The position numbers were made by a program, and so were the translations under genes. DNA of 64,000 bases, from NCBI GenBank assembly GCA_010093745.1, contig MU005958.1, positions 1 through 64,000 on the forward strand, written 5' to 3'. The notes below the pieces were generated by a model. That model was not told the origin of the DNA, did not search any database, and saw nothing but the letters and a program-made list of their open reading frames with translations. This document shows positions 43,896 through 53,100 of the stretch, piece by piece; within the stretch, counting starts at the first letter, position 1; each line of letters starts with the position of its first letter. The DNA is from Piedraia hortae CBS 480.64. Lineage: Eukaryota.

Positions 43896-45003
43896 CGCTG
43901 AAGTGAGGGGGGCCCGTTCATGCACGACGCGAAAGGAAGTGTTTGTGTAAAACTGTCATTTGTGTGACATATAACGATGATGCTGTGCCACGTTGATTAG
44001 CCCATGAAATGATAACATTGCATGCAAAATTCCTACAATACCGCCCGGAAGTGTGTCTGCAGGACCATATTCCAAACCAATGGCTCCCGAACAAATGTCG
44101 ATCATAATCTATTTTTCTCGCCCGACCTGAATATCAATCGAGCCAGATCGGTTGAGGTGAGGAAACCTGCACCTGGTTTTAATTTTCTTTTCCGTCGATC
44201 ACCCCATTTCTGGCCGCATGTCTGCCTGCTCACCCCCTCTTCGCTTGCCTGCTGTCTCACCTCCCTCTTTCTTTCTGTTACACAAGCCTGGTCGCTCGGG
44301 ACCTTTTCATCTTCTTTCATCTCTTTTCCTTTCCAAATTATCTTACCAGTTGCACCAAGTTAAAATCCCTGTTTAGCAGATCCGCAGATCAGCAGACATC
44401 AAAACATGATTTCTCTGCTGCGTGTAACTTGGAAATCAGGCTGATGTGGAATCGGATGACCGCTTTGGGAAGTGGATTTCCCTGCCGAACCCGCTCTGCC
44501 ATGCGTCGCGTTGTGTTGAGGACCAGGCAGGGATCTGAGACAGACAGGTGGCTTGCGTTTTTGTATGCAGATGTGAGGAGGCCGAAGGAGTCTAGAAGAG
44601 GGCAGCTGCTGGGGGATCGAAGAGTAACTCATGATTAACGTGCAGCAAAACATGAGGATATTTGCTACTGCTGTATTGTCATATTATCGAAATCTACAGA
44701 GTCCATGGCTGCTGATTGCCAGAACAAATCCTTTCCGTATCTCACATAGTCAGCCCATCGTTACATTCCCATACGCAAAGCATCAAGAAGCGGACGTTAG
44801 CACACATCCCAAGCACACGATGCGAAACCTCTCCTCTGCCAGAAAAACAAAAGCTCTTGCAGACCGAACATCCCAACATGTATACCCACCAAACGGGCAA
44901 CACTCTGGAAAAAAATAAGCCATCCCCACAAACCCCGACCCCCTATCTCACCATCCCTTCTTCCCTCCATACCACGCAGGTATCCTCCGCATCCCCAAGA
45001 CCT

Positions 45004-45265
45004 TCACCTCTCAACCCTCTCACACACAACTCCCACCACAGCCCTCAACACAGCTATCTCCTCCTCGACACTCGCCCTCCCGAGAGGAAAGTCCACCCCC
45101 CCACCAACAAAACACAACTTCCCTGTCCTCCTCACCAGCACTTTAGCCAATCGCGTAGCAAAATCTCCTCCTCCGGGGTATATCCTCGTGCTGAGGGGCT
45201 CGTTGGTGTTATATTTCTGTTTTCCAATGAGTTTTTCATATCAGAGGGGTGGAATGGGGGACCGA

Positions 45266-45301
<36 letters not shown>

Positions 45302-45529
45302 GAAGCTACGTACGTTTGGCATAGAGTAGGTTAACGGACCCATGGGCGGTGTTGTTGGGATTTCGTCTAGACCGGTGCTTGTGAGGAAGAGGAGGAGGGT
45401 TGAAGAGAGGTTTGTGAGGTGGATGTGCAGTTTGAGGCCCGTGGATGGGAGGGGGAGCGTGAGTTGCGTTGGTTGTGTTGGTTGTGTTGGGGGCATGATT
45501 GGTGCGGTGGGGCGTGATGTTGGTGACAT
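45004..45529 (-). CDS. Proteasome assembly chaperone 4 (Poc4/PAC4)-like (intron 45217-45313)
   Basis: LHIHLT..LLLFLT..MGPLTYSMPN|..PLST..FATRLAKVLVRRTGK..FVG..VEEE. Confidence 0.72.
45268..45300. repeat. G33 homopolymer inside the PAC4-like intron; a second G11-A-G5 run lies at 45549-45565
   Basis: Direct count from the sequence. Confidence 0.9.
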
Positions 45530-46496
45530 TGCTTGGAGGGGTTTGGGTGGGGGGGGGGGAGGGGGAAATTTATCTGAACGATGATATACCAGATAGCTTT
45601 ATCTACGGCGGTAGAGGGTTAAGATGGTCAGTGGAAAAGAAGATGGTATCGTAATCCTTTTTCAAAACCCTCGTGGTCGGCACTATCTCGACGAAGATGT
45701 GCATTTCCCGCCCAAAAACAAGCGGGTTTTTTTCCCTTTTAATGTTAGCCCGGGATCCAGCAATATTTCCAGGTATCTGAGCGTGTTATCGGTGCGGCAG
45801 CCTGTCCTGGAGCGTGATAGGTATCTGAAGTGTCATCTCTGCTCATCCGATGATCTTCTACCCTCCGTTACTCTTTGACCATACTTTGACCATATTGGTC
45901 AGGGTAAAGTTCAGTTGGCTCAAGCGTTTGATGTCATCAATACGCCTGGTAAGAGAACATCATAGGTAGATTGGCAGGTGAGATTGTGACGCTTGGGGGT
46001 CCTCCTGAACGGGGTGTAACGACCACACCAGTCAACAAGGACTTTCAATAGAGCGGCTGCTGATCTCCTCGTGAGATGTTGGAAAAAAAGCTGGACCTTG
46101 TAAAAGCTATTTCCAGTGGTGCACACTTTGCCGATTACGTAGACAAGAACAGTTACATTGCGTTCCTCGGCAGAATGACCAGCGTTATGCTTTATGCTCA
46201 AGGCCCATTTTTTTAGCCAAAACGTGATGCTCTCTTTGGATCGATGACGATGATTCCATGCTTATGCAGCTTTATGCTTGATGCATGCCTCAGAAGCTGG
46301 GGTCATGCGGTTGAAGTAAGATAGTTGGAGTTTGCAGATGGATTTAATTTCGATAGTGGGGTGTGGTGTGTACGGAACCATTACGCAACTGCTATCAATC
46401 AGACTTGATTAATGTTCGGGGCAAAGCATGAGCATTGTAATGTTGACAGCAGCGATGAAAAGTCTCTAGAAGGGCACTTTGGTAAGCGTTTGTCTA

Positions 46497-47250
46497 TCAC
46501 TTCCCAGAAGCCTGCAACCGCTCATCGACCATCCTCGTAACCATTTTCTGCAGCACAGCACTCCCACTCCCATCCCCAGACTTAAAATACGCTGCAACGC
46601 TCTTTTCAACGTATTTGCCCACCATGTCAACTTCCACGTTCACATCATCCCCCTTTCTCTTTTTACTCGTGACAAGCTTGCTCTGGGAGTAGGCAACCAT
46701 CATAATCTCCCACCAGGCATTCTCATCATCCACGTTCGTGACCGTCAAGGAAGCGCCGTCGAGGGTTACATAGCCCTTTTCAACAACATATCTCACGATG
46801 CGTTTATCCCTGGGTTGCAGACGAAACGTAATGGCATTGCCGTCCTCTCTTGTTTCCAGAATCGTGGCAACGGTATCGACATGACCTTGAACAAAGTGAC
46901 CGCCCATTCGCGTGTTTGCACTGACAGCGCGTTCGAGGTTCACGCCGTCTCCTTGCTTGAGGAGGCCGAGGTTCGTTCTGCGGAGGGTTTCAGGCGCAAC
47001 GCCGACTTTGAATTCATCCTTAGAGAACTCAGTGACGGTTAGGCAGGTGCCGTTTACGCTTATGCTGTCGCCGAGATGAGCGTCCTCCAAGATAGAGGCG
47101 CAGTTGGATATGGTGATAGATGTGCCTCCCCCACCGCTGGAAGATTCATCATGCTGCACAAGGCGAGACACAGCTGTTTGGGGAGTGTCAGTTGGCCCAG
47201 ACGTTTGTTGTAGACATACTGCCTATGGCTTCCACGATGCCTGTAAACAT
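46497..47250 (-). CDS. RIB5: Riboflavin synthase (intron 47174-47219)
   Basis: MFTGIVE N-terminus, GDSISVNGTCLTV, VNLERA, MGGHFVQGHVD, LDGASLTV, VNVEVD. Confidence 0.96.
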
Positions 47251-47298
47251 TGTGCAGAGTTTGGTGGCGGGCCGTTCCTCGGCTGTGCAAAATGTTTG

Positions 47299-48186
47299 CT
47301 ACATCAGCAACTTCTTCATCCTTCTCGCGTTGTCCTCCCACCTGACCCATGCCGCTGCTTGCAAGAGGCAATCGGCCAGGTCGTCCAGTTTGGCACCCGA
47401 TCGCTTTTTGCCAAATGACAGAGCGGTTTCCTTGGCCTCACCGGTAAAGGCGATATCCACCTCGCCATCGCCATTCATCCATGCCCTTACGATATCCTTT
47501 CTATCGTTCTTGGTGACCTTTGACCTCTTCTTCGTAGCTGCAACCTCCTCCCACCTCAATACCCCCTTCTGACCCCGCGACACCGCCCGTTCCGACGGCT
47601 TGAGCGGAGCCTCCGCGGTCCAGAAGTCGCCCACGCGCGCGGGGCTAACCTCGTGCATATCCACCGCAGCGCCTGTGCCCGTTGACTTGAGCGTTTGTAG
47701 ACAGGCCCAGAGCATGCTCTCTAGCATGTTGACCCTGACGGTCCACTCTGCAATGGCCGGCCCGCTATTTGACCTGAACCGCTGACGCTCTATTAGCAGA
47801 GCATCTGGTTTGTATGCCAGCAGCTCCTTTGTGACGCCGTAGGCCGTAAGCGACAACACGGCCGGCGTGAACAGGGCGGTGTGATCTGAGACTCTACCAT
47901 CTTCACTTTGCTCCTCATGCTGCTTCAGCAAGTCTAACCTCTGCCACGCCGTGACCCGGGACGCCGTCCCATCGTGTTCAAGCACGCAGTAGGCGAGGTT
48001 ACGGATGCCCATATCGACGCTGAGGACGCGTTTGGGACCCGACGACACGCCGTCGACCTTGCGGCCGATTGCCGTCTGCAGCACGGGTTTGGTGCCTGCG
48101 CTGGGAAGACCGAGCAGGAAAGCGGCATGCTTGAGTTGGGCGAGCTTCAGAGTCGCGAGACGCGCTGCCGTCAACTGAGTCACCAT
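47299..48186 (-). CDS. CCE1: Mitochondrial Holliday-junction resolvase Cce1/Ydc2 with an N-terminal SAP domain
   Basis: LKLAQLK....LGL..AGTK..L (SAP), LSVDMGIRNLAYC, LIERQRFRS, KLDDLADCLLQA. Confidence 0.92.
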   Translation of the reverse strand: MVTQLTAARLATLKLAQLKHAAFLLGLPSAGTKPVLQTAIGRKVDGVSSGPKRVLSVDMGIRNLAYCVLEHDGTASRVTAWQRLDLLKQHEEQSEDGRVSDHTALFTPAVLSLTAYGVTKELLAYKPDALLIERQRFRSNSGPAIAEWTVRVNMLESMLWACLQTLKSTGTGAAVDMHEVSPARVGDFWTAEAPLKPSERAVSRGQKGVLRWEEVAATKKRSKVTKNDRKDIVRAWMNGDGEVDIAFTGEAKETALSFGKKRSGAKLDDLADCLLQAAAWVRWEDNARRMKKLLM

Positions 48187-50083
48187 GGCCTGCCAAGTTG
48201 CGTCGCTGGCAATTTACAACCCGTCGCTGGGGCCTACGGATGAGACGTTTGCCGACCAACTCGTCTTTTGGCACTCGCGCGTCGCCCGCGAAGCCCGTAG
48301 CGCTGCTAAGCGGACCGGCGTGGAGAATGTCGATGTCGCCCGCCGCGACCAGAACGAGAGACTGCGCCAGATTGGTCTCGCTCAGGGCTTGGTCAATTTC
48401 GCGAGGTGCGTTTCATCTACAAGGGCGAGTAGCCTGAACTAACGGCAACACAGGACGTTTTCCGGCGGGAAGCCAGTCGATGGGGTGGAAACGGGACGGT
48501 CACGCATTGTCCTATGGCCTCCCGAAGATGGATGGTGGATCCTCGCCTCGGTCGACCTTGCCAAGGTGACGGCAGAGGTGCAGACAGACGAATACTCATC
48601 CCGCGGCCTGAGCCCGCCGGCGCTGTTGGTACAGCAGCTACGAAACGCACACCGAATCTTCAGCCTCCACCATGGGTCGTCTTGGACGACACTCTACGGC
48701 TCGTTGGGGAGGGAGCGGTTTTGCACGGCGCTGGACCGGTTCTGGTCGCGGTTCGCGCGTACCTGGGATGTCATGCTGCACGATAACCCTGCGGCAGAGC
48801 TGCTGGGCGGCATCAAACTCGGCGGCGGCGGCGAGCTGGGGTTCGGCGTAGGCGAAGAAGACATGGGCAGCGCTGAGCGGGCAGTCCTCCAAGACCTCGT
48901 ACACCGCACCGAGGGTCTCATCGATGTCGTTGTATCACGCTTCGGCGAAGCAGAAGCATCAGGCAAGGAAAGCCTCCCATGGTTAGGAAGTGGACGACAA
49001 CCATCTTCCGCCGACGGAGTCGTCTTCTGCGGAGTCGGTGCCATTTCCCGTATCGACGTGGGCAAAATGTCCCTCTGGATACAGCAAATATTCACAGACG
49101 GCGAACTGGCCTACGGGATCCGTCAGGATCCGCATCGCGAGCGTCGCAAACGGAGACGTGATGTCCCCAAACCAGACCCAAAGGTCCCTCGACCCATCAT
49201 CTCCCCCAAAGCAGCATCCGTGTCCGAAGCTTCATCCACATGGGGCGTGCCAGAAACTTATATGAAGTATCTCTCCCTCGGCCTCGGCGGGGGTAGCAGC
49301 AGCGGCAGCAGCAGTGCCGTTACCAGAGACAAGTCCCCCCTCCGCAGCCGCGAAGGTGAGCAAGAGCAAAAGAAGCGAGAGGCAGAAGGCTACTTCCTCC
49401 TCGGCTACAGGGGCGACCTCTCAAGCTCATCCTCCACCATCAGCGAAAGCGACAAATCCCACCCGGAACCAACCCTTCTCCTCCGCACAATCCACCTCAC
49501 GCACACCCTCGCGGTAGCAGTAATCTACATCCGCCGTCCAATGATCTACACATTTCTCTTCTCTGAATCACATACGCCCTTGCTCCACACCCCAAATCTC
49601 TACCTCACAATCCACGCAGACCTAACCGCAATCCACACGGGTCTGGTTGCTCACACCGCACCGCGCGAAGCATCCCTATATAAATTAACCTCCGAGGACG
49701 GCATGGTGTGTACCAACTGGCCAAGCATTCCCGCAGGTTATTCCTCGCGAGAGTGGACGAGGGCGGAGGCAATGGGCGTGTACGCTTGTGCGTTGAATAA
49801 TATGACGTTGTCGGATTCGACGAGTCTTACGATTAGGGGTTGGGTTATTAGGAAGTTGGAGGGGGAAGAAGGGGGTGGGAGGAGGGAGGTGATTGCACTT
49901 GTCCCGCCTATGGCGGCGGCGACGGAGACGGGGACGGGGAGTCGAGTCAATAGTGATTATGCGAGTGGGTTGTGGGCTAGTTTGACGTTTCGATCGGGGG
50001 GTAAGAACCTGGGGACGGGGAAGATGGTGCAAGAGACGGAGTATGTCTTGTCTGCGGACGAACTGGCGCGGGGGGATGGGTAG
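48185..50083 (+). CDS. CCZ1: Vacuolar fusion protein Ccz1, longin domain (intron 48406-48453)
   Basis: LAIYNPSLGPTDET..DQLVF, NERLRQIGLAQGLVNFAR|TFS, GWWILASVDL, WDVMLH.NPA. Confidence 0.88.
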
Positions 50084-50108
50084 TTTGGGACAGGTGTATT
50101 TACATGGA

Positions 50109-53100
50109 TTAGTCGATATCTTCGCGGGCTTCGACAAAGATGCTGCCTTCTGGACTGACGTCTCGGTCTGCGGATGGGGGTGGAGGCGGGGCGAGTTCGC
50201 TTGATGATGGATTTTGGGGCTGGTCTTTGGGAGGCGGTGCGGGAGGGGGAACTGTCGTTTCTGAAGTCTCTCCTTGGGGAAGATTGTCCTCCACCTTGGG
50301 CTGAGGAGGAGCTTCTTGACTTCTAAAGCTCAGTGTAGCGGCGTTCCTGGCCCGTTCTTGCTGCAGTTCCCACGCTTCTCTGCGCGCCTTTTCCTCTCTC
50401 AGCTTCCGCACCCGCTCGACCTCCTCCACGCCGCCGCTCTTCTTGAGCCCGCCTTCTTCGTTGAAGTTGTCCAGTGCGCGTTGCAATTCGCCTCCCTTTC
50501 GGCTTTCGAGTTCCTTTTGCCGCGCTCGCTCGGCCCGCTCGATGGCTTCCAGTCTGCTCTCGTGGTTGGGCTGCAGGGCGCGCACTTCGCTGAGGACGCC
50601 GACTTGGGCTTCCTTGGGGTCTGCACCGCGATCCATGGCCAAGGTGTTTAGTGCCCGACCGGAGCTGGTATGCCCGCTTTGAAGGCTCTGCTGCTTACAC
50701 GCCTGCTCCACCAGCCGGAAAGTCTCGGCCGCCTTTTGCATGTCGTGCTGTAGATCGTTGCCCAGCTCGGCCTGTACCGTGAGGAGCTCCTTCTCATCGC
50801 ACACGACCTCGAGATCCCGCTCCCACCGCTTCGTCCAGATTGGTTTCTGCTTCTTCATGTTCTCAATGTGTTTCTTAAGCTCCATTGTCATCTGTGCCAC
50901 TTCCTTGCCCACAGCTTCCAGCTGGCGTGGATGTGGCCGCACTCCGCGCGTGAGCACGTCCCGCCGGATATCCTCGACCTGGTCTTGCATCTCCTCTACT
51001 CGATCCAGCAGCTCCTCACCGGTGGCTGCCATCTCCGCCACGCCTTTGCTGATGGTTCCGCGCGAGTCTGAGCCATCGGCGGCAGGAATGGCTGCCTCCA
51101 TGGCCGCCTGCTTGACGTTGGCTGCCTTGCTCCTGATCTGCGCCATCGACGCTTCCATGTCTGTGACAAATGAAGAGTATGTTTGCCGCACCACGGCGAG
51201 GTCCCTGCGCATGCGCTGCACCTCTTCCAGCTGCGACGATGGGTCCCGTACTTTCCCACCCTTCACAACGCCTACCTGTGACGCCTGTGGGGCGCTGCGT
51301 TGGGCAGCCGCCAGACCGGCCAACTCGGTCGCCGTTGTTTGCTGTCGCCGCGAAACGAGTTCCAGCGCCGTGTGCTGGTTATCCACGCCCGTCTTGATGC
51401 CTTCAACGATGCGACGGATGCCTCCAAGCTGGTCATCCATCAGCCGTCGAATCTCCTCCAGTGCCTCCACATTGAGCACGAGCACAGAGTTTTCCTTGAT
51501 ATCAGAGAGATCCTCCAGCTCGTAGCGCACGCCCGACACTGGATCCTGGATGTAAATATCGGGCAGGTCCACGCCGTGGTTGTGCGTGCTCCACGCAAAC
51601 TTTTCGATAAACGCCAGTTGCAATTTGCCAATAGTCAGATCTCCACCATCTGGCAGCACCAGTTTCTTGATCTGCGTTTTGTACTGCAGAAACAGCGTGA
51701 GTGGCTTCCCCGGTTGCGGAGAGTTTTCGGGTACAAACTGCTGAATCTGTTGCTGCATCGAAGCATCCAGAACAGAACCCATTCGACGACGGCTGAGCTC
51801 GCGCTTAAGTCCACCATCGTCCTCTGGCTCTTGAACTGTCGAGTCAAGAGTGCCAGAGTCCTCCGGCGGGCCGTTGAGGGTGGCAGGTGTAGCTTTTTGT
51901 CCATCAATCGTCTTTTCCGCCCCGTCTTCGGACGGCTGTACATTGGTGCCCTGCGGCTGACGAATTGAAGGAGCGGGAAATCCATCGTTGGACATTTCTT
52001 CGCTCTGCTCGGATATTCGGCGGGTATCCATGCGATTTGGGCTTTTGTCCAGGCCGTTGTTCCGGCGGCCGTGAATACCGGTGCCCCGTGAGCGCACAGC
52101 AATCAAGCTCTCGCGCACATCACGATTCCGGTTGGGGACTGGCGTGTGCTGTGCAGGCGGGATGGTCGGAATGCCATTCATACCGGGGCCCAGCTGCTTG
52201 TGGATCTGATACTGCGAGAACCGCCTCGATGCCCGCCGCTCCAGCTCTCCGCTCCGCTGCAGCGTCGTGAGGGCATCGTTGTTCTGCCTTGGCGGTGGCC
52301 GCCGCGGGGCCTGTGACCCGTCCGCGTCGGCCGGACCGCTGGGCATGGCATCAGAGTCTGGGTAGGGCACAGCCCCAGGCATATCCGGTAGCGACAGAGA
52401 AGACGCTCCCATGTTGATGCCAACCGGCCGGCCGCTGGTCCGCGGGCTGTTGTTATTCCGCCGCGGAGACGTTGGCCATTCGCCGCCGGTCTCCGTCTCG
52501 CCTACGGCTACCGGCTCTGCTACGCGAGTGCTGGGGGTACGTGACGGTAACTGTGCGAGCTGCTCCGTCAGGTTGCTGTTCACGCTGCCGGAGCTGCTAG
52601 AGCCACTCATGTGACGCGCTGGGCGTCCATCAGCTGCGCTTCGCTGCCTCAGCCGCTGTTGCTTCTTCTTCAGCCCATGCAGCAGGTTGATGATGATATC
52701 GCGGATGCGCGGCAAATAGCGCTCCAGACTGGCCTGACTCGCCTCTTGCGACAGCGTTTCCTCTAGAATCACGCGCAAAAGGTCCGGTACGGGCCCCAGA
52801 TCGCCCGTATCGACACCAATGGCATTGAACGCCCGCGTAGCAATGTTGAACTCATAGCCCAGCCGCACGTAGACATCACTGACTTGGGTTTCCGTCGCCG
52901 TTCGCCGTGACCACAGCGTTAACGTCTCCAACAGCTCTTTGGTCGCAATCAACAGGTTCGTCACGCTCTTCTCAATCGTCGCCACCTGCTGCCCCTGCTG
53001 TGACCGTCGTCAGCGCCCGTACCGCACCGAGAGCTACCACGCACGTTCTGGCTCCGACGGCTGCCGCCTGACGAGCGATTGGACAAGGAACCCGACATGG

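Follow-up and report, generated by a model that had tools for sequence, protein, structure and literature searches.

CCE1 and CCZ1, two conserved housekeeping genes of the hair fungus Piedraia hortae CBS 480.64, diverge from a single CATG in which their two start codons overlap. The pair occupies positions 47,299 to 50,083 of contig MU005958.1 (assembly GCA_010093745.1), the first 64,000 nucleotides (nt) of which were analysed and are hereafter called the window. CCE1, on the minus strand, encodes a mitochondrial Holliday-junction resolvase, and CCZ1, on the plus strand, encodes a subunit of the Mon1-Ccz1 exchange factor for Rab7. The explanation that we consider likely, and hold with good confidence, is that both genes are intact, that both ATGs are the real start codons, that the two messenger RNAs (mRNAs) start inside each other's gene, and that the arrangement is of lineage-specific origin. 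The pair and its neighbours were read directly from the sequence of the window, from a listing of its open reading frames (ORFs) and from Pfam profiles; homologue searches, related loci in metagenome contigs and RNA-derived contigs were used in addition.

Two start codons in one CATG

As the original prediction had it, the four letters at the junction read as ATG on both strands (Table 1). The CCZ1 ATG lies at 48185-48187 (+) and the CCE1 ATG is the complement of 48184-48186, with two bases common to both and a spacer of -2 nt. The in-frame stop codons that had been placed just upstream of each ORF are indeed present. The CATG is enclosed in the 6-base-pair (bp) palindrome CCATGG (48183-48188; junction context tcaCCATGGcc), and each ATG has CC at -2/-1, a purine at -3 and a G at +4 on its own strand. 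Beyond CCATGG, no larger palindrome or inverted repeat was found around the CATG, only short weak pairs. Chance is not at issue for the CATG, since both reading frames are backed by homology. The claim that the genes leave no intergenic space between them stands as well, both starts being backed by the N-termini of orthologues and, for CCZ1, by a public gene model; a non-coding region that could hold a shared bidirectional promoter is absent between the two start codons.

The start of CCE1

The CCE1 ORF matches the Pfam family PF09159 (Ydc2-catalyt) over residues 54-288, with an E-value (E) of 9.6e-54 and 183.2 bits (cut-off 23), and the match covers profile positions 1-256 of 258. A homologue search with the CCE1 protein gave 1491 matches among 4413 candidates, and the figures below rest on the 120 that were listed. 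The protein, 295 amino acids (aa) long, is already in the public collection, identical letter for letter, and the listed relatives, with at most 49% identity, are proteins of Dothideomycetes that carry the names cruciform cutting endonuclease 1 or mitochondrial resolvase Ydc2. An alignment was made with 20 of the 120 listed homologues, hand-picked for a named source and for spread. It contains 59 invariant columns, all of which are kept in the CCE1 of the window, including D58, E133, D268, D269 and D272, which we take to be the acidic, presumably catalytic residues of an RNase-H-like active site. Ydc2 of Schizosaccharomyces pombe carries an N-terminal SAP-type DNA-binding motif, and the SAP-like residues L13, K14, L18, F23, L24, G26, G31 and K33 are invariant or nearly so among the aligned homologues.

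The distance from the start codon to the SAP-like LK motif is 5-15 residues in all 20 aligned homologues and 12 residues in the CCE1 of the window. The same alignment was used to scan metagenome contigs, in which 266 relatives were detected and the best 80 loci were used. In 67 of these loci the match starts within the first 15 query residues; the ATG that first follows the upstream stop lies at most 42 nt before the match in 61 of them and 96-105 nt before it in the remaining 6. The next Met of CCE1 is M59, within the invariant DMGIRN motif, and conserved residues are found from residue 13 onwards. Given that M59 lies inside this motif, no downstream Met start of CCE1 would give a working protein.

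The start of CCZ1

Unspliced, the ORF that begins at the CCZ1 ATG runs over 48185..48442 (+); the spliced gene encodes 616 aa. The homologue search with exon 2 gave 754 matches among 8000 scored, and again 120 listed matches underlie the figures. At E-values between 8e-97 and 1e-74 (8.3e-97 for the best named relative), exon 2 is similar to listed dothideomycete proteins, some of which are annotated as 'Vacuolar fusion protein CCZ1-like'; 74-88% of it is covered in many of the listed rows, and no Pfam match was obtained for exon 2. The public protein P0121 ('hypothetical protein K470DRAFT_209514, partial [Piedraia hortae CBS 480.64]', 309 aa, 100% identity) has the same ATG and the same intron as the spliced CCZ1 model and is an exact prefix of the 616 aa. 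Its precomputed Pfam entry is PF19031, the first longin domain of the CCZ1/INTU/HPS4 family. In tblastn searches with five CCZ1 orthologues, the matches begin at 48185 or 48191. Gene models with these starts are already in public annotation for both CCE1 and CCZ1. P0121 ends at 49159, while an RNA-derived contig (see below) is continuous over 48452-50001 without a further joint; since P0121 is an exact prefix and no further joint is seen, the public model looks truncated at its 3' end.

CCZ1 exon 1 contains no second Met, and conserved residues begin at residue 8. To compare N-terminal tails, 84 of the 120 listed homologues were used, namely those that begin with M and have a LAIYNP-type motif among residues 1-120; fragments and models without an N-terminus, 36 in all, were set aside. 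With 7 residues before the motif, the tail of the CCZ1 of the window is the shortest of the 84, the others having 11-23 residues (median 16). Reading the CCZ1 frame upstream of the ATG, no residual homology to the longer N-termini of orthologues was seen. The whole protein is short too, with 616 aa compared to about 740-945 aa in most of the full-length relatives listed, i.e., the CCZ1 protein is trimmed as well as the spacers.

The gene names, the coordinates and the positions of the N-terminal motifs that had been proposed from the letters of the window all agree with the ORF listing, the Pfam matches and the alignments, and neither gene has an alternative Met ahead of its conserved motif. 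These observations bear on a different explanation, in which the CATG is coincidental and one of the two starts is mis-set, the true start of CCE1 or CCZ1 being located downstream, possibly at a non-AUG codon, with a short ordinary spacer in between. Possible near-cognate starts are at hand, e.g., a CTG at CCZ1 codon 8 and GTG, TTG and ACG within CCE1 codons 2-6. No downstream ATG precedes the conserved motifs in either gene, however, and conserved residues already appear within the first 13 residues of CCE1 and the first 8 of CCZ1. In addition, each ATG has the context CC-ATG-G and a -3 purine, and P0121 starts at the same CCZ1 ATG. A mis-set start is therefore regarded as quite improbable.

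RNA-derived contigs across the junction

RNA-derived data were taken from one run (X1) of one study, of which the contigs, assembled from 31-letter words, were mapped over 46000-53000; such contigs drop rare forms. Record 1 of X1 is a contig of 4364 nt that covers about 45544-50001 with no differing letters and no gaps, and runs unbroken over the CATG. It skips exactly two parts, namely 47174-47219 (a minus-strand GT..AG intron, seen as CT..AC on the plus strand) and the 48-nt intron of CCZ1. The joint in CCZ1 was recorded as 48403>48452 (48 nt skipped, GT..AG with the cut at +2) and that in the neighbouring gene RIB5 as 47173>47220. The two bins that hold these introns have depths of 332.1 and 328.5, which equal 413.3 x (234-46)/234 and 413.3 x (234-48)/234. 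Because these depths scale exactly with the share of non-intron sequence, no mapped contig retains an intron, and the X1 material would consist of spliced RNA without visible DNA. The kind of X1 is on record as a guess ('RNA?'), and its RNA origin is argued here from the spliced introns.

The contig bears on the possibility that the junction is an assembly artefact, i.e., that a spacer was collapsed or deleted and that the real genome has a normal promoter region. The spacing is indeed an extreme outlier, whether compared with relatives (see below) or with the remaining divergent ORF pairs in the window, which have gaps of 154-1464 bp. However, a spliced, RNA-derived contig from a library other than that of the assembly matches the junction base for base, which rules out the local assembly deletion that had been named as a possible refutation. 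Both reading frames are also intact up to the junction, and the neighbouring junctions are tight as well (48 and 25 bp). An artefact is hardly credible on this evidence. Upstream spliced exons that might supply other starts had likewise been raised; the only joints detected in 46000-53000 are those of CCZ1 and RIB5, and no such exon was seen.

One contig thus joins introns that are spliced on opposite strands. As deduced from the 31-letter words of the assembly, this requires that RNAs from the two strands have a stretch of about 30 nt or more in common at some point between 47220 and 48403.

Probable leaders inside the neighbouring coding sequence

With no non-coding DNA between them, use of both ATGs means that RNA polymerase II has to initiate each mRNA within the opening codons of the neighbouring gene, to which any 5' leader must be antisense. 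The proposal that the promoter and 5' leader of each gene lie inside the coding sequence of the other, with leaders antisense to each other, is supported in that it follows from the two starts and the missing spacer. The two mRNAs would cross, being antisense to each other over their 5' leaders, with start sites and a length of overlap that are inferred. Transcriptional interference or the formation of RNA duplexes may be likely consequences, by analogy with the human gene pair INO80E/HIRIP3.

In eukaryotes, scanning from the capped 5' end makes upstream ATGs costly, and bacterial initiation depends on ribosome-binding sites. Two stretches free of upstream ATGs flank the junction and are candidate leaders (Table 1). 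On the CCE1 side, the first antisense ATG beyond the start is found at 48414-48416, within the CCZ1 intron. Any CCE1 leader no longer than 227 nt would thus contain no ATG ahead of the start codon. On the CCZ1 side, the nearest upstream ATG is at 48127, 58 nt away. The trinucleotide CAT does not occur in 48187-48405, compared to a mean of 3.6 occurrences in 792 coding windows of 219 nt from the same 64,000 nt, 3.8% of which have none. For 17 long ORFs from the window, including CCE1 and the ORF of CCZ1 exon 2, the count of antisense ATGs over the initial 219 nt is 1-6. This depletion of antisense ATGs fits crossed leaders and is only suggestive.

An arrangement closer to that of Giardia is conceivable, in which both ATGs are used and the leaders are just a few nt each, with the start sites back to back and a negligible antisense overlap. 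It would agree with the missing non-coding DNA and the missing promoter elements at the junction, and the strong CC-ATG-G on both strands would help, as a strong ATG context aids the recognition of a cap-proximal AUG. Against this stands the contig in which RNAs with minus-strand and plus-strand splicing are united, something that would need about 30 or more shared nt; the ATG-free stretches of 227 and 57 nt are compatible with leaders of ordinary length, and very short leaders are poorly translated in yeasts. Such minimal leaders are considered unlikely.

Relatives and lineage specificity

The spacing of the orthologous pair in relatives, suggested earlier as a check, was assessed in the 80 metagenome loci. 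Of these, 76 have a flank of 300 nt or more upstream of CCE1; the flank reaches 1000 nt or more in 57, 2000 nt or more in 46 and 5000 nt or more in 28. The window's CCZ1 exons and six CCZ1 proteins served as queries, and the same queries recover the CCZ1 of the window. CCZ1 was found beside CCE1 in none of the 80 loci, and the nearest upstream ORF of at least 120 aa lies 190-2272 bp from the CCE1 ATG in 41 of the 42 loci with enough flank (none was present in the remaining one). Within the flanks, none of the neighbours in the window (RIB5, CCZ1, and AIP3) was detected near CCE1 in any of the loci. In more distant relatives, genes that are located at 21.7-24.5 kilobases (kb) of the window lie near CCE1. 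With CCZ1 beside CCE1 in 0 of 80 loci, the head-to-head junction looks lineage-specific, as far as these sequence comparisons go.

There is an unverified hint that CCE1 and CCZ1 are linked non-adjacently, more than 6 kb apart, in several relatives, which comes from same-sized contigs (19263, 33614, 59492, 24313, and 97277). In two of these (19263 and 33614; loci L003 and L012 with proteins P0131 and P0126), CCZ1 is perhaps on the 3' side of CCE1, more than 6 kb away, which is likewise unverified. The locus tags 009167 and 009136 of Cladosporium fusiforme also point, unverified, to linkage without adjacency. If the hint from L003 and L012 is true, it suggests an old linkage of the two genes without adjacency.

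As a proxy for the spacing of divergent genes in general, divergent ORF pairs were collected from the 80 loci, giving 41 pairs with a median gap of 573 bp and 4 pairs below 100 bp, a measure too crude for a rate. The pairs at or below 0 in L020 (8295-9812) and L031 (1937-3202) were rejected, each being read as an internal exon of a glutathione-reductase-like gene with an antisense ORF, and the close pairs in L041 and L071 seem to involve spurious ORFs or ORFs extended too far. Proxies based on ORFs alone, as the cases L020 and L031 illustrate, yield false head-to-head overlaps.

A possible origin and its limits

The junction most likely arose in the lineage of this small-genome dothideomycete, and the order of events proposed here has two steps. 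A rearrangement would have placed CCZ1 next to CCE1, and a deletion would then have removed the whole spacer and, from the N-terminal end of CCZ1, about 4-16 codons. CCZ1 would have taken as its new start the ATG on the complement of the CC-ATG-G context of CCE1. Compared with the tails of the orthologues, the short tail of CCZ1 is in keeping with a deletion that reached into the gene.

A more far-reaching version is a crossed pair of polymerase II promoters made of coding sequence. In this version, a lineage-specific rearrangement took out the whole spacer and trimmed CCZ1, antisense ATGs were purged by selection from exon 1 so that it doubles as the CCE1 leader, and expression of the resolvase and of the Rab7 exchange-factor subunit is mutually exclusive on one chromosome at one time. 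This version is regarded as speculative and doubtful. If true, the facing initiation complexes at CCE1/CCZ1 would be a eukaryotic counterpart of the bacterial excludon.

Several points weigh against the explanation preferred here, i.e., two real starts in one CATG with crossed mRNAs and a lineage-specific origin. The SAP match at CCE1 residues 10-38 scores 17.9 bits, below the cut-off of 23.9, and the plus-strand ORF reaches 23.7 bits against PF19031 (residues 7-80), which is exactly the cut-off. No AT-rich, promoter-like dip was detected at the junction, where the G+C content is 0.61-0.65 and no promoter element is recognisable. The comparison of antisense ATGs was a post-hoc test with a tail of about 4%. 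X1 is a single run of a single study, of a kind that is only guessed and probably from the same strain as the assembly. Its contigs carry no start site, strand or local depth, and CCE1, being intronless, has an mRNA that cannot be separated in them from antisense or read-through RNA; the continuous contig could have been bridged by pervasive or read-through transcripts instead of the two mRNAs. Lastly, the evolutionary scenario rests on distant relatives with at most 49% identity.

Table 1. Features at and around the CCE1/CCZ1 junction (positions in the window).
Feature	Positions	Strand	Evidence
CATG with both start codons	48184..48187	both	sequence read directly
CCE1/Ydc2-type mitochondrial Holliday-junction resolvase gene, single exon, 295 aa	47299..48186	-	ORF, Pfam, homologues
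CCZ1 exon 1, 73 codons plus 2 bases, first longin domain from the LAIYNPSLG motif	48185..48405	+	ORF, Pfam, P0121
CCZ1 intron, 48 nt, GT..AG, CTAAC branch-like motif	48406..48453	+	sequence, RNA-derived joint
CCZ1 exon 2, to stop TAG 50081-50083	48454..50083	+	homologues, RNA-derived contig
In-frame TGA, 9 nt upstream of the CCZ1 ATG	48176..48178	+	sequence
In-frame TAA (TTA on the plus strand), 30 nt upstream of the CCE1 ATG	48214..48216	-	sequence
Stretch upstream of the CCE1 ATG without a minus-strand ATG, spanning all of CCZ1 exon 1; candidate CCE1 leader	48187..48413	-	
Stretch of 57 nt upstream of the CCZ1 ATG without a plus-strand ATG; candidate leader within CCE1 codons 1-20	48128..48184	+	
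RIB5-like riboflavin synthase gene, 235 aa, MFTGIVE start; exon 1 47250-47220, intron 47219-47174, exon 2 47173-46497	46497..47250	-	sequence, RNA joint, PF00677 (E 8.2e-40)
AIP3/Bud6-like gene, 833 aa, convergent with CCZ1	50109..52610	-	ORF, PF03915 (E 2.8e-133)

A compact block of four genes

CCE1 and CCZ1 belong to a block of four genes, RIB5-CCE1-CCZ1-AIP3, with spacers of 48, -2 and 25 bp; elsewhere in the window, the gaps between long ORFs are ordinary. The 48 bp at 47251-47298 lie between the minus-strand stop of CCE1 (TAG, 47301-47299) and the RIB5 ATG at 47250, and the RNA-derived contig spans both genes. A gap of this size implies either that the 3' end of CCE1 and the promoter and leader of RIB5 overlap neighbouring coding sequence, or that the two genes are co-transcribed. 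Record 1 extends about 950 nt past the RIB5 stop (46497), to about 45544, toward low-complexity G runs and proline-rich ORFs at 44878-45600; the RNA at about 45544-46496 may belong to a transcript without annotation or to a long 3' untranslated region (UTR). On the other side, the 25 bp at 50084-50108 lie between the CCZ1 stop and the stop of the AIP3/Bud6-like gene (50109-50111, minus strand). RNA contigs in 49972-50340 are short pieces of very unequal depth, and this break-up of contigs fits overlapping 3' ends of CCZ1 and the AIP3/Bud6-like gene.

According to a comparison of 101 Dothideomycetes (PMC7082219), P. hortae has the smallest genome (16.95 million base pairs, Mbp) and the fewest genes (7,572), which gives a genome average of about 2.2 kb per gene (16.95 Mbp / 7,572). 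The gene density of P. hortae is yeast-like, not protist-like.

Significance and comparison with known systems

Two conserved eukaryotic genes without promoter DNA of their own form a clean natural case. The recruitment of polymerase II, the setting of start sites and leaders free of upstream ATGs must all be encoded in protein-coding sequence, on both strands, and the pair is a compact natural test case, small and testable, for promoters that are written into coding sequence. It also shows the reach of local compaction in a fungus that is otherwise yeast-like in density. The original prediction called the arrangement very unusual for a eukaryote, which is too broad, as overlaps are known in Giardia muris and human; it is unusual for a filamentous ascomycete, with 0 of 80 related loci sharing it. 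In a search of open-access papers and bioRxiv, no description of divergent fungal genes with overlapping start codons was found. The CCE1/CCZ1 overlap opens no new category, head-to-head overlaps being documented in protists and animals.

Fungal bidirectional promoters, which a Fusarium study reportedly puts at about 1000 bp in length, are an ordinary counterpart: as there, the genes of the pair diverge with their 5' ends close together and control is possibly shared. Those promoters are intergenic sequence, of which there is none between CCE1 and CCZ1. In Saccharomyces cerevisiae and Schizosaccharomyces pombe, the sense-antisense overlap of UTRs of neighbouring genes merges transcripts in RNA sequencing (RNA-seq; PMC4363200). 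The X1 data are alike in this respect, record 1 being one contig with genes of both strands. In the yeasts, only UTRs overlap and a spacer is left, whereas the coding sequences of CCE1 and CCZ1 meet and share two bases.

In Giardia muris, 441 genes (9.5%) overlap their neighbours, by 21 bp on average, and the median spacer is 37 bp (PMC7641422). CCE1/CCZ1 resembles this in that neighbouring coding sequences overlap by a few bases through compaction. It differs in scale, since the overlaps of G. muris are genome-wide and the CCE1/CCZ1 overlap is a local exception.

Human head-to-head overlapping genes such as INO80E/HIRIP3 are linked to interference or RNA duplexes (PMC11890862). As in that pair, CCE1 and CCZ1 are protein-coding genes of opposite strands with overlapping 5' ends, their transcripts would be mutually antisense, and interference or duplexes are possible. 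The human overlap is formed by 5'-extended isoforms and non-overlapping isoforms are kept; in P. hortae, the start codons themselves overlap and the spacer is nil, and for this reason every CCE1 or CCZ1 mRNA would have to overlap the coding sequence of the other gene.

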